Source: a virus (Duplodnaviria; Heunggongvirae; Uroviricota; Caudoviricetes). Taken from it: a DNA stretch of 45,081 nt. Positions 36,001 to 45,081 of the stretch are shown here, piece by piece (the stretch's first letter is position 1; each line of letters starts with the position of its first letter). The position numbers are program-made. Where the stretch lies: IMG/VR virus record IMGVR_UViG_2563366897_000006; one strand, 5' to 3'.

Positions 36001-39000
36001 GCTGGATGGTTGGAAGAGAGTATATTCACGTATCACCAGACGGTAATCCAAAGCCTTCCAGTGAATGTATGTATAACAGAAAAGCAATAGATGCCTGGGT
36101 CGCCTCAATGAAAAACAAACAACCCAGGTGATTTAATATCATGAAATATGTAAGCTCGTATCGCTCTTGGGCGTCTGGAGGTATCGATGGATAAAGTCAA
36201 ATATCCAACAGGCGTCGAAAACCACGGCGGCACATTACGCATCTGGTTTAATTTTAAAGGTAAACGTGTCAGGGAAAATCTTGGTGTCCCTGACACTGCC
36301 AAGAACAGGAAGATCGCCGGGGAACTGCGGACATCAGTATGTTTTGCCATCCGCACAGGAAGCTTTGATTATGCTGCACAGTTCCCTGACTCCCCCAACC
36401 TTCAGGCTTTTGGGGTAAGTAAAAAAGAAATTACGGTGAAGGAACTTGAAGAAAAGTGGCTGGATCTGAAACGAATGGAAATCTCTGCAAATGCATTCAA
36501 TCGCTATGAATCCGTTGCAAGAACGATGGTTCCGAAAATTGGAGGCAGTAAACTGGTGTCATCGGTAACCAAAGAGGAATTGCTGTATATCAGGAAAGAT
36601 TTGCTGACCGGGTATCAGAATTCAACGAAAAACAAAGCAGCAGCAAAAGGACGGAGCGTCGTTACTGTAAATTATTACATGACGACAATCGCTGGAATGT
36701 TTCAGTTTGCTGCAGATCACGGTTACTTAGAAGCAAATCCCTTCCAGGGAATTAAGCCTCTTAAAAGAGCCAGGGCAGAGCCAGATCCGCTAACTCGTGA
36801 CGAATTTATTCGCCTGATAGATGCTTGCCGACATCAGCAGACGAAAAACCTGTGGTCATTGGCTGTGTACACAGGAATGCGTCACGGTGAACTGGTCTCC
36901 CTGGCCTGGGAAGATATCGATCTGAAGGCAGGAACAATTACCATCAGGCGCAATTATACGAAACTTGGTGAGTTCACTCTACCGAAAACTGAAGCAAGCA
37001 CAAACAGGGTTGTGCACCTTATCCAGCCCGCTATCAGTGTCCTGAAAAATCAGGCTGAAATGACAAGACTGGGTAAGCAGTACAACATCAAGGTGCAACT
37101 ACGTGAATATGGACGTTCAGTGAACCATGAATGTACTTTCGTGTTTAACCCTCAAGTGGTTAGAAAAAGCGAACAGGTAGGTTTTGTCTACAAAGTCGAT
37201 TCTGTAGGTGACTCATGGGAAACAGCCATTAAGCGTGCAGGGATCAGGCATCGAAAGGCATACCAGTCACGACACACTTATGCGTGCTGGTCATTATCTG
37301 CCGGAGCAAACCCAAGCTTCATTGCCAGCCAGATGGGCCATGCAAGTGCCCAGATGGTATTCAATGTATACGGAGCATGGATGACTGACAGCAATGCAGA
37401 ACAGATCGCAATGCTGAATCAGAAGCTGACAGATTATGTCCCAATGATGCCCCATAGTCACCAAAGTGACACCAGAGGCTTATTAAAATCAGTAAGTTAA
37501 TCCTTAATACCCGTCATGTTAACTGCGTGGAGGGTAACACCACGCTTTATGCCCTGCCGAAACCCGAGGTTGTCCTGCGCTGGCGTGAGCAGACCACAGA
37601 TGACTTCCGCTTCTGTTTTAAGTTTCCGGCGACCATTTCGCATCAGGCAGCATTACGGCATTGCGATGATTTAGTGACTGAATTTTTGACCCGCATGTCA
37701 CCGTTGGCTCCGCGCATTGGACAATACTGGCTGCAACTGCCTGCCACATTCGGCCCACGGGAGCTGCCTGCGCTTTGGCATTTTCTCGATTCTCTTCCCG
37801 GTGAATTTAATTATGGGGTGGAAGTCCGCCATCCACAGTTTTTCGCCAAAGGGGAAGAGGAACAAACGCTTAATCGCGGTTTACATCAGCGCGGCGTTAA
37901 TCGGGTGATTTTTATTAGACACGTTTAAATACACCATCTAAAACGATACAATCTAGGGCATCAGTTTTGAGGTGAACAATGAAACGTGCCATTTCTTACA
38001 TCAGGTTTTCATCTGAGAAGCAATCCCGAGGTGATTCATTACGCCGACAGTCTAAGATGGTTAATGACTGGCTTAAGGCTCATCCTGAGTACTACCTTGA
38101 CCAAGATTTATCTTTTCGTGATTTGGGGGTGAGTGGGTTCACTGGTAAGCACTTGAAAGGTGGCTTAGGTGACTTTTTAACCGCTATCGAGAAAGGGCTT
38201 GTTAAAGCTGGTGATACGCTCTTGATAGAATCTCTTGACCGTCTGTCACGTCAAGATGTAGACCAAGCAAGTGAGCTACTCAGAAACATTCTTCGCTCTG
38301 GTGTAGATGTGGTCACCTTGTCCGATGGTGAACATTACACAAAGGAAAGCTTAAAAGACCCGTTAGCTCTGATTAAAAGCATTTTGATAATGCAGCGGTC
38401 GCATGAGGAGAGTTTGCGTAAATCTGAACGTATCCAAGCTGCATGGGATGCAAAGAAAGAAGCTGCTAAAGCCGGTATCAAGATTTATAAGCGTTGTCCT
38501 GCATGGCTTAAGCTTAATGATGACCGTAAGACCTTCTCTGTGATACCTGAGAAGGTAGAAACTGTGAAGAGGTGCTTTCAATTACGGTTAGAGGGTAAGT
38601 CTATTTGGGAGATTGTCAGGACTCTTAATGATGAAGGTCACCAGACACTTAACCAGTACAAAGCAGGTAAGTTTGGTCAAACCTCAGTGCAAGACCTTCT
38701 GAAAAATCGCTCTGTAATTGGTTACTTCACACCTAAAGGCTGTGAGGAGATAGCTGGTTATTTCCCCCCTATCATCCCTGAGACTGATTTCTACAAAGTC
38801 CAGCAACTATCATATTCTCGTTATGGAAGAAAGCCTGCTTCAGATAAACCATTGAGTGTGAATCTTTTCAAAGGTGTTATCCGTTGTTCTGAATGTGGTC
38901 ATGCTTTGATTATCACAGGCTTTAGCGATACAAGAAACGGGATTTATCGTTGTCCTCTTCGTAATGAAAACCGTTGTAGTGCTAAAGGACTTTCACGTAA

Positions 39001-42000
39001 GCAAACCGATGGTACATTGCTTGCCCTGCTATCCCGTATAGACCGATTTGATAGCGATATGACGAATACCATAGACACACTGAAGCTACACCGTGAACAC
39101 ATCTCAAGCAATATTGAAAAGCTGGTACAGCTATCACTTGAAATTGAAGACTTGTCCGCTATTACCAGCAAACTAAAACAGTTAAAAGGTGAGCTATCAC
39201 AGGTTGATGCGGATATCGAGAAGGAGACACAACGCCTTAAATCTATTGATGTTGGTTGTTTGTCTGATTGTGACTTGACTACAAAGGCGGGAAGGATTGA
39301 AGCACAACTGATAATCAAAAGTGCTGTTAAAGAGGTCATTTTAAATACTGCTAAACGTCGCTGTAAAGTAACTTTTCACAATAGTAAGTCAATCACCCTA
39401 CCAATAACAGAAACCCCCTCAGAGGACGTTACAGAGGCTATACAGTCGCTTTCTGAAGTCACTGAGAGGGGGTTGATAGATGTTGATGAGGTTATCATAT
39501 AGTTGAGATTCTATCGTCAGAATCGCTTGTTAGGATTCACAGAAAATTTCTTCAAAGTACTACCTGTACCAGCATTATTAAGCACCTTTGAAGCTTGCGC
39601 ATTAGCGGCATCTGAGAAGGTGCTTTTTCCATTCTCAACTTTGACACTTTTACCACAATTGATACGGGCTTGAAGTTGCTCATTAGTGAGTTCACTCGTA
39701 GAGCGATTATATAGCTCCTGACACAGCAACATACCATTACCTAGACTTGTCGTAGTGTTACCAGTGTTCTTCTTAGAAGTTGCACCACCATCATTCGTGG
39801 TAGCAGTCTTTCCAGTTGCAGCAGAAATATCAGTCTGACCAACAATAGCTTTGAAGTTAATTTCCTGAAAAGTTAGCTGGATTCTTAGACCGTTTGAAAT
39901 CCCCACATCTTTAGAGGCTTTAAAACTCGTAATAATGGAATCGTCAATTTTAATTCCGTCTTTACAGATGACCGAAATAATCTGTTTCTGGTCACGCCAG
40001 CTTTCAAGAGTGTCGATGAAGTTTTCTACTAATTGACCCTGACGAGTTAATAATAAGCTTCCTTCATAGCCAACTACAACGACACCACTAATAGTGATTG
40101 TTCTGGGTGCTCTTTGCACATTATCTGTAACGGTTTGTCCTGATTGCATGTTCTGTGTAGTCACCTGCATAGGACTATCAAATTCCATGTTTTCAGTTGC
40201 TGATAAGGTTAAGAAGGCATCTACATTATCTCTTAAGTGGAAATAGATGCCGTCTTTGCCACTATATTTGATTTGGTTAGAGTAAATCATTAAATTCCCC
40301 TTTGATTTCAAAGGCTTAGTGTATTTTAATCATTTTTAACCAAGCCTTTGATATATAAGTGTTTTCTCTGTTAAGCGTGTTGTACGTAAATTCTATTTTT
40401 CAGTGTGGGTATTAGCTTTACAGATTTCACGTAGCATTCGACTATTATCAATCATCTTCTGGGAATGATGAACTTAATAGCGTAGCTTCTGCGTATTGGT
40501 CGTAGATATTACTGCTAAAGGTCATAAAGCTGGTTTCATCTGGTTTAATGGCAACTTCACCACCAAGTGAAACTTTCACAGGCTCCTGAATACGTTTGCT
40601 CAAAGCACTAATTTCATCTCTCAGGCTTTGGATATCCGTATTCGTTAATGCCGCATCTTGTCTCATGGTGATTAATTCTGGATGCTGGAAGTTAGCAAGA
40701 TTCATAGCTGCACTATTAAACCAACCTTTCACATCGTCCATAGTAAATACTGGCTTAAGTCCAGATTCTTTAGCTAACTCTGGTAATTTAGCTTGTGCTT
40801 CCATTCGTTCAGGTGTAGAGGCTAGTCTTTCATAACCTGCATAGAGAGCGCTACCAGCTAATAGCATATTCCCAAGATTCAGTCTTGATGGTTTCCCATT
40901 CTTTCTATTCACGTTATCCGCTGTAGTATCAGCAACCTGACCTAATCTTGTGATAGCAGTCATAAGCCCGTAAATACTTCTGGTTACACCAACAACTTTA
41001 TTTACAGCAATAACACCAGCCAAGACTTTTAAACTATTAATCAAGCCAGAACCTAAAGCATCAACAACTTTCTTTTGTTCATCGGTTAAACCACGATAAG
41101 CTAATGTCACCTCATCAAAGAACGCTCGCACCTTGTAACTAATATCGGCCAGACTATCGACACCATGTGACATATCAGTCATCAAGCTACCAAGAGATTC
41201 ACCAAGACTTTTACCACTTCCACCAAGAGCGTTTAAAAGCGTTGTTAAGCTTCTTGTAAAATCTTGCAGACCACTTTCAGAACCTCTGAAGATACTATCA
41301 AGCGTGGTATTCCAAGAGTTTTTCAGGTTCCCTAATTGTGCCTGTGTACTTTCTGAAATAGCTTTCCAGCCACCTTTAGCGGTGATTTGTCTATTCAGTT
41401 CCTGAGTGACCTTCTGAAGAGTATCGGCAGATTTTAAAGCCCCCTTCTTCATGGCATCAAATAATTCCTGTTCAGTCTTTCCGGTTGCTTTAGCGAATAC
41501 CTGAACCATACCAGGAACAGCTTCAGCTAGTTGCCCCTTAAGCTCTTCAGCCATAACCTGACCCTTACCAGCCATCTGTGATAATGCTGTCAGTGCTCGC
41601 TTAATCTCTTCTTCACTTCGACCCATCAGACGAGAATAGCCAATCATACTTCTAAAAAGTTCTTCAGAACCTTGAATACCCATAGACTCTTTAGCTGAAG
41701 CACCGAAACCAGCAAACTGTGATTGCAGTTCAGCGATATCTAAACCCGTTGTTTGAGCTAATGACTTTGTGAACTCTTTTACCTGACCTGCATCTTTATC
41801 AAATACGAAATCAATTGAACGTTCAGCACTTGCACGCTGTAAACCAATTTCCATTACTCGCTGATAAGCTGCCAAAGCACTTTGAAAAGTGTAAATAGCC
41901 GTACCCGCTTTAATTGCACTTGAAGCTAGTACATCTAAACCATTTGAAGCATTTTCACTGTGATTATTTTTGCTGGTGGTCTTGTTAAACTTAGAAAGTG

Positions 42001-45000: not shown

Positions 45001-45081
45001 CACATCTTCAAATTCAGCATCTGCTAAATTCTGTCTGATTAGGTGGCTGCCAAGTGTGGAATATTGGAACCTGTAACACAT

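Follow-up and report, generated by a model that had tools for sequence, protein, structure and literature searches.

A putative satellite family of Felix O1-like phages in Escherichia coli carrying a phage-type tape measure protein and tube initiator

A stretch of 45,081 nt, recorded in IMG/VR as the virus IMGVR_UViG_2563366897_000006 (here, the window), ends within an AT-rich mobile element inserted in the Escherichia coli gene yecE, which we analysed here. This element encodes homologues of a tape measure protein (TMP) and of a tube initiator (TI), and, as judged by sequence similarity, both genes are of Felixounavirus origin, from a virulent myophage, and not a siphophage remnant. Our favoured reading, held with slightly better than even confidence, is that the element represents a new E. 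coli family of satellites of Felix O1-like phages, which would build or poison chimeric tails like the PLEs of Vibrio. Among the possibilities raised in a preliminary description of the window, a satellite-type element is therefore the one favoured by the evidence. No description of this E. coli element family was found in the literature.

Alignment with the empty yecE of E. coli K-12 showed a precise insertion in this gene. The attL crossover core, TGATTTT, lies at 37906..37912 and forms the left boundary, coinciding with position 37911, where the preliminary description had the AT-rich sequence begin. The window end cuts the element, with the left 7.2 kb inside and about 4 kb more beyond; the remainder was read from E. 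coli JNEC-KY173 (NZ_AP045169.1), which is 100% identical, in a 47.6-kb stretch (L001) whose coordinates plus 17499 give window coordinates. Extending the window, as had been proposed, led to an intact far end with an attR of the same 7-bp core at window-equivalent 49108-49114, outside the window and 11,202 bp downstream of attL, leaving 11,195 bp between the cores. GC content is 38.8% in the element, 38.9% in the phage and 51.9% in the chromosome, and along the window it falls from about 0.49-0.52 to 0.35-0.41 on entering the element.

An open reading frame (ORF) scan reproduced the genes of the preliminary description in their places, namely a plus-strand recombinase convergent with a minus-strand string encoding TI (257 aa), TMP (682 aa), p69 (69 aa) and p235 (235 aa), with 14 bp between the recombinase stop and the stop of the 257-aa gene. 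Beyond the window follow p96a, the divergent p61, p96b, Rep with its iterons, a Dam methylase, a 1.1-kb non-coding arm and attR. By Pfam and PHROG, TMP and TI are the only virion genes of the element, and no capsid, portal, terminase, sheath, tube or lysis gene was detected in it. Conventional temperate prophages carry complete head, tail, lysis and lysogeny modules and typically measure 30-60 kb. We rejected this identity for the element, given its 11,195 bp between cores and its incomplete head, tail and lysis modules.

The element integrase is a large serine recombinase of 507 aa (37979..39502, plus strand). It matched Resolvase (PF00239, 1.6e-20), Recombinase (PF07508, 8.6e-15) and Zn_ribbon_recom (PF13408, 3.5e-7) in Pfam, all above cut-offs, and integrase in PHROG (6.5e-77), and the motif YIRFSSEKQ was read from the sequence at its N-terminus. 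Catalytic resolvase, recombinase and zinc-ribbon domains in about 450-600 aa are characteristic of large serine recombinases. The reconstructed attP contains an inverted repeat, GTGTATTTA...TAAATACAC, around the TGATTTT core, as expected for a serine integrase. This predicted attP was found, in one observation, inside the 11,473-bp metagenome contig ERZ1090866 NODE_760 (L020), a circularly permuted complete element broken at the iterons and ending in sequencing adapter. The ends of the element are joined in nature, as a circle or as a concatemer. The preliminary description had named a complete conventional prophage, or a decayed far end without excision, as outcomes that would speak against it; we found an 11.2-kb element that is not a complete prophage, an intact far end and a joined attP in public data. 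Other contigs of about 11.3-11.7 kb had the look of episomes; of these, two were examined and rejected as such. L019 corresponds to the integrated element, ending on both sides in about 30 nt of yecE (graph break), and L016 sits at a third att site. L020 alone carries attP.

The 257-aa protein (39517..40290, minus strand) is, by sequence comparison, a Felixounavirus-type TI, with a tube-like core and linker (aa 1-185) followed by an element-specific C-terminal domain of about 70 aa. It matched PDB 9NDY_A, "Tube initiator protein gp018" of phage Bas63, at E 2e-129. Residues 6-185 are identical to gp119 of phage garuso at 179 of 180 positions and the last ~70 residues show about 35-40% identity, giving 83% identity overall and about 99% in the core. 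At the nucleotide level, more than 200 Felixounavirus genomes share about 545 nt of the gene (element nt 1822-2365) at about 94.5% identity. As the protein that nucleates tail-tube assembly, the TI lies on the baseplate hub. In Bas63, the TI hexamer bridges the change in symmetry from threefold hub to sixfold tube, and its C-terminal extension of ~100 aa threads the baseplate (PMC12609058). A Felix O1-like TI gene at about 94% identity to the element was also observed in GU169904.1 (Staphylococcus phage SA1) and in one Campylobacter-named record; these records are probably chimeric or mislabelled.

The 682-aa protein (40448..42496, minus strand) is collinear with the Felixounavirus TMP and belongs to Pfam TMP_3. 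With 27% identity to the phage TMP (735 aa in garuso), it is 53 aa shorter, and conservation is concentrated at the two ends (first ~45 and last ~22 aa) and in the central TMP_3 core, the C-terminal end reading LLSSSFPEDD in the element and LLSSSYPEEE in the phage. In Bas63 the last 25 residues of TMP touch the hub and the puncturing apparatus (PMC12609058). The profile and structure searches suggested earlier returned recombinase domains, TMP_3 and, for TI, Dit_like, with PHROG in agreement, together with an uninformative fold for p69. The earlier statement that this is not an ordinary siphophage tail module was borne out, as TMP and TI are of myophage type. Receptor-binding and lysis genes are indeed absent, as the preliminary description had noted; since the tape-measure-like gene and the "Thr/Gly/Asn-rich" protein form a myophage TMP/TI pair, their absence is not the key anomaly that it was taken for.

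The relation to Felix O1-like phages extends to gene order. In garuso the order is chaperones-TMP-TI-hub with TMP and TI abutting; the element keeps the order TMP-TI, and its two genes have non-coding spacers of 157 and 183 nt with a private cis motif and a terminator. When all element proteins were searched by tblastn against the complete garuso genome, TI and TMP alone had matches. In the non-coding arm, a 58-nt stretch with a hairpin is 88% identical (E 1e-12) to garuso sequence lying immediately upstream of gene 96; by eye, the collinearity can be followed upstream for another ~50 nt, as far as a CTTGACAAGGT motif present in both, and further short matches of the element lie in phage intergenic regions. 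To our knowledge, Felix O1-like phages are strictly virulent and leave no prophages.

The spacers hold putative regulatory DNA. A cis motif of about 70 nt (GCTACGTGAAATCT..ATACCCAC..TTTACGTA..CACGCTTAACAGAG) occurs upstream of the TI gene (40366..40435, minus strand) and again upstream of the TMP gene (42511..42580, minus strand). In other copies of the element it lies upstream of TMP and/or TI with 97-99% conservation, the two versions being swapped between the TMP and TI positions in L019, and it is lacking in phage garuso. Because its RNA folding is weak (z -1.9 and -1.2), we treated it as a DNA-level regulatory site and not as a riboswitch-like RNA. A strong intrinsic-terminator-like hairpin with a 16-bp stem and a T tract (42594..42631, minus strand) lies between the p69 and TMP genes, just upstream of the TMP copy of the motif. 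Upstream of p235, a near-consensus sigma-70 promoter (44063..44091, minus strand) reads TTGACA-17-CATAAT with a TG and matches at 11/12 positions. From the promoter, the terminator and the motif we infer that expression of the tail genes would be gated or induced, not constitutive.

Rep (320 aa) matched the replication-initiator families phrog_8102 (3e-11) and the O-like phrog_678 (2e-7), and its gene holds four tandem 22-nt iterons beside an AT-rich stretch. Iterons placed within the initiator gene, next to an AT-rich stretch, are the arrangement of lambda O/ori. Other copies carry a Rep variant, 37% identical, with a different internal 23-nt array, and the iterons co-vary with the Rep variant. 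The element, as predicted from these features, has a complete replicon with a lambda-O-like initiator and an origin. With its own integrase and joinable att ends, its own replication module and an incomplete set of virion genes, it has three of the features by which satellites are generally recognised; the fourth, induction by a helper phage with packaging and transfer through it, is a prediction.

The element belongs to a family. The same architecture was found at three att sites, yecE, tonB/yciI and the third site; the recombinase of the tonB/yciI copies is 33% identical to that of the window and the copies are flanked by a 13-bp direct repeat (by eye from alignments), and the third-site copy (L016) encodes a recombinase of 532 aa. 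Complete copies of readable size measure 11.2-11.7 kb. Of 5426 complete E. coli genomes, 405 contain the TI gene, which was chromosomal in every case, with as many as three copies in one genome, and relatives of p235/p69 occur in E. coli, Shigella, E. albertii, E. fergusonii, Citrobacter freundii and some Salmonella. Some element copies contain insertion sequences (IS). TI is intact in eight copies and TMP in nine, of which eight are complete (682-716 aa, all shorter than that of the phage) and the ninth, of 647 aa, comes from L014, a partial copy on a short contig from which no TI was obtained. The reading frame was uninterrupted in each of the TMP and TI copies examined.

Purifying selection acts on every gene that was tested. 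Relative to the window copy, dN/dS is 0.12-0.16 for the recombinase, 0.10-0.16 for TI, 0.28-0.45 for TMP, 0.19-0.49 for p235 and 0.22-0.34 for the Dam-type methylase. In the same pairs, dS of TMP and TI is far larger than that of the recombinase. The other TMP copies are 47-63% identical to the window copy and are mosaic, with at least two N-terminal and at least three C-terminal types. The nearest Ounavirinae also differ among TI alleles, being Felixounavirus garuso-like phages (94.7% nt), the ESCO45/49/50 group (88%) or Mooglevirus (about 74%), and the similarity to phages stops each time at about nt 555. This pattern points to repeated exchange of TI alleles with different Ounavirinae lineages.

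Considering these results, we propose the following course of events. Infection by a Felix O1-like phage, from Felixounavirus or the related Ounavirinae, would induce the element, which would excise and replicate, and TMP and TI would then be expressed from the terminator-guarded genes with the repeated cis motif. The putative docking surfaces have been kept, namely the tube-like TI core, the TMP N-terminus and the last ~22 residues of TMP, and the two proteins may therefore enter helper baseplates and form chimeric tails, which would be shorter by about 8 nm (53 aa at 0.15 nm each). Such tails may serve transfer of the element, divert or poison helper tail assembly, or both, and helper capsids would presumably package the element, perhaps in concatemers of about 7-8 units. 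In its fullest form, to which we give an even chance, the proposal is that this is the first satellite family of a strictly virulent phage in E. coli and its relatives, one that swaps the helper TMP and TI for its own to give chimeric contractile tails, restricts Felix O1-like phages, arose independently of PLEs and continues to exchange alleles with several Ounavirinae.

The closest working parallel is found in V. cholerae, where PLEs, which carry a large serine recombinase, parasitise the virulent myophage ICP1 as satellites (PMC12987554). Their own TMP and tail assembly chaperone (TAC) each have 20% identity to those of the helper, and the baseplate hub protein that some of them encode has 41%; the PLE TMP is 95 aa shorter, the tails lose about 10 nm in length, and mass spectrometry demonstrated chimeric tails for PLE11 (PMC12987554). 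Other satellites were not known to encode a TMP, predictions in PLE-like Vibrio elements and some cf-PICIs excepted (PMC12987554). The E. coli element resembles PLEs in its integration by a serine recombinase, its link to a strictly lytic contractile-tailed phage, its own initiator and origin, its AT-richness, its shorter and strongly diverged TMP beside a better-conserved hub or tube-initiation protein, and the order (upstream genes)-TMP-hub protein as in the helper. It differs in its lambda-O/DnaD-like Rep (RepA type in PLE), in its size of 11 kb versus about 18 kb, in its TI, which at 83% overall is far closer to that of the proposed helper than PLE BhuB (41%), and in its hosts, which are Escherichia, Shigella, Citrobacter and some Salmonella, not Vibrio; TcaP-, NixI- and Gpi-like functions and a recognisable TAC were not found in the element. 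The PLE1 TAC structure 5IR0, the only PLE protein compared, was not among the PDB sequence matches of p235 and p69. Given the non-Vibrio hosts and the lack of any PLE homology found, we do not file the element as a PLE, only as possibly working like one.

Compared with the Felixounavirus module (gp17 TMP and gp18 TI in Bas63; gp118 and gp119 in garuso), the two genes are direct homologues in the same order, with a virtually identical TI core and a TMP that keeps its N-terminus, central domain and hub-binding C-terminus. The element nevertheless has only two of about 25 structural genes, the spacers described above instead of abutting genes, a TMP that has diverged and shortened, and a variant TI end. 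Like PICIs, cf-PICIs and P4-like satellites, it is an E. coli chromosomal island that would exploit phage virions, and some cf-PICIs are reported to carry predicted tmp genes (PMC12987554, Extended Data Fig. 10 legend). Those satellites, however, have tyrosine integrases, AlpA, Pri-Rep or alpha-primase, terS/capsid/sid/psu genes and temperate helpers, and none of these markers was detected in the element by Pfam, PHROG or NCBIfam. PICMIs share the small gene content, the lack of capsid-remodelling genes and virulent helpers (proposed, for the element), and are reported to package DNA without capsid remodelling (PMC10803314); they differ in host clade and gene set and have no tail genes. The tail-assembly inhibitors Tai, Tab and PLE11 Rta would have the same target, tail assembly, but are small proteins unrelated to tail structural proteins, whereas the candidates in the element are structural-protein homologues.

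Several points weigh against a satellite of Felix O1-like phages. Phage-dependent induction, interference and packaging are predictions for this element. The attP of L020 is a single case, from a sample whose type is not given, and proves end joining, not helper dependence. In IMG/VR, no match was found for the two attP junctions or for a conserved 34-mer of the arm, and the matches to p235 are prophage calls from isolate genomes, which means that no virion-derived sequence was among them. Neither a small terminase, a pac mimic, a capsid-remodelling gene nor a recombination directionality factor was identified in the element. No TAC was identified either; p235 and p69 stand at the chaperone position, without similarity to phage chaperones and without an informative fold. 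Finally, what a satellite gains from chimeric tails is unexplained even in PLE (PMC12987554).

Some of these points would suit a mobile anti-phage island that is not transduced, the main rival reading, in which the near-native but altered TI and TMP act as dominant-negative decoys in the baseplate hub, block or cripple tail assembly or DNA ejection and so protect sister cells, while the element spreads by other means. The TI core at 179/180 as in the phage, joined to a differing version of the C-terminal domain that threads the baseplate in Bas63, the retention of only the docking ends in TMP and the lack of any packaging or capsid gene among those found are all consistent with such decoys, and interference with tail assembly is known as a defence from Tai (PMC11364771), Tab (PMC10884400) and Rta (PMC12987554). 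A pure defence cassette, however, has no obvious need for an initiator and origin, or for excision; PADLOC gave no match but an orphan methylase, and the terminator and cis motifs before TMP and TI suggest induced expression. We consider such an island unlikely as the whole account, and it is compatible with a satellite, since satellites normally interfere with their helper.

Two further explanations were weighed against a satellite. TMP and TI may have some other role for host or element, for example in superinfection exclusion at DNA injection or in some unrelated use, the phage similarity then reflecting ancestry or gene exchange. TMPs do act in genome injection and contact inner-membrane factors (HK97 work, as cited in PMC11364771), and the element encodes the fully conserved small membrane protein p61; yet it has kept exactly two physically interacting tail-initiation partners, their docking regions are conserved and their alleles have been exchanged repeatedly with different Ounavirinae lineages, which argues for a function inside a phage tail. 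We regard this other use as quite improbable, and the preliminary suggestion of a tail-derived system of another function gained no specific support. As for a decaying cryptic prophage remnant with a recombinase and two tail genes and no present function, also among the earlier options, the small number of genes, the many hypothetical ORFs, the lack of capsid and lysis genes and the IS insertions in some copies are what decay might leave. Size (~11.2-11.7 kb) and gene order are nevertheless uniform at three att sites with different recombinases, TMP and TI ORFs are uninterrupted in every copy examined with dN/dS of 0.1-0.45, the att junctions are clean and an attP junction is present, and the tail genes come from a strictly virulent group that leaves no prophages. 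Together with the purifying selection across genes and the complete predicted replicon, these observations make decay very improbable.

Felix O1-like phages are widely used in typing, biocontrol and therapy of Salmonella and E. coli. If the satellite proposal is true, an element present in about 7% of complete E. coli genomes would be an overlooked determinant of host range and treatment failure, and an E. coli counterpart would put the question of tail manipulation in the most tractable host. It was not until 2026 that satellites with chimeric tails were shown, and then for Vibrio PLEs alone, with generality and purpose left open (PMC12987554); for E. coli, the Bas63 baseplate structure is solved and BASEL-collection phages are at hand as helpers. 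The mosaic TMP and TI alleles would be a natural record of an arms race between phage and parasite. Genes named "phage baseplate protein", "tape measure protein" or "transposase" beside a recombinase in yecE or tonB/yciI should not be read as a prophage scar.

The non-coding right arm covers 1.1 kb beyond the window end (L001 30489-31608; window-equivalent 47988-49107). By eye, over an alignment of ~800 nt, it is about 95-100% conserved across att sites, more than any protein gene. It is dense in short repeats of the TCTGTA type and has a perfect 24-nt inverted repeat (L001 31218-31241 / 31570-31593) beside attR, and an Rfam search of the whole element returned no family; a pac site, a regulatory region and an RNA are candidates for its role. 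A hairpin motif, GATTC-N-CCGAATCA, lies upstream of p235 (43752..43773, minus strand) and also in the arm (L001 31229-31250 and 30808-30835), with 2 exact copies in 47.6 kb versus 0.01 expected, and is a candidate binding site of a regulator of the element.

Among the remaining proteins, p69 (42680..42889, minus strand; basic, pI 9.9) is conserved in the family and was also found in Citrobacter freundii, E. albertii and Shigella; its AF2 model (pLDDT 77) gave no informative fold match. The family-specific p235 (42913..43620, minus strand; acidic, pI 5.1) is predicted to form a long helical hairpin and a small alpha/beta domain, and had no match in Pfam, PHROG or NCBIfam. In databases it is called "transposase" in thousands of entries, a name that we rejected, as the protein is without a transposase domain; with no domain in its support, the name appears to be a propagated annotation error. 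Neither p69 nor p235 matched the chaperones of garuso (gp117 and gp116) in BLASTP, and none of p235, p69, Rep and p96a had a meaningful match in sequence searches of the PDB. No named NCBIfam family was found among the element proteins. The Dam-type methylase, beyond the window, has a C-terminal helix-turn-helix, and PADLOC reported only this Dam-like gene, as an orphan methyltransferase, and a non-specific coiled-coil, with no described defence system.

The small variable ORFs p101, p71 and p73 (44193..45081, minus strand) begin an accessory or regulatory region that continues past the window. There, p61 (L001 28009-28194, plus strand; 61 aa) has one transmembrane helix and is invariant (100% identity) between copies in which the adjacent genes show about 95% identity. 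It is divergent from the operon of p96a (96 aa), with promoters at L001 27908-27958 in a switch-like layout, and it recalls, as a resemblance only, the small lysis-modulating proteins of satellites.

Most of the window (1-37573) is filled by a complete-looking lambdoid prophage that stands in tandem with the element and is a separate insertion, 74 nt into yecE; yecE is thus split by two unrelated mobile elements of different recombinase classes, and a 5' fragment of the gene remains at about 37507-37912. This prophage carries a P27-family terminase, a Q antiterminator, Rha regulators, a LexA-like repressor, an excisionase and a tyrosine integrase (36187-37500). Three tRNA genes (Arg, Arg, Ile) lie in it at about 22437-22686 (L001 4938-5187, minus strand), between a methyltransferase fragment and the lysis cassette. 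Downstream of yecE, outside the window, torZ is annotated here as a frameshifted pseudogene (L001 34320-36748).

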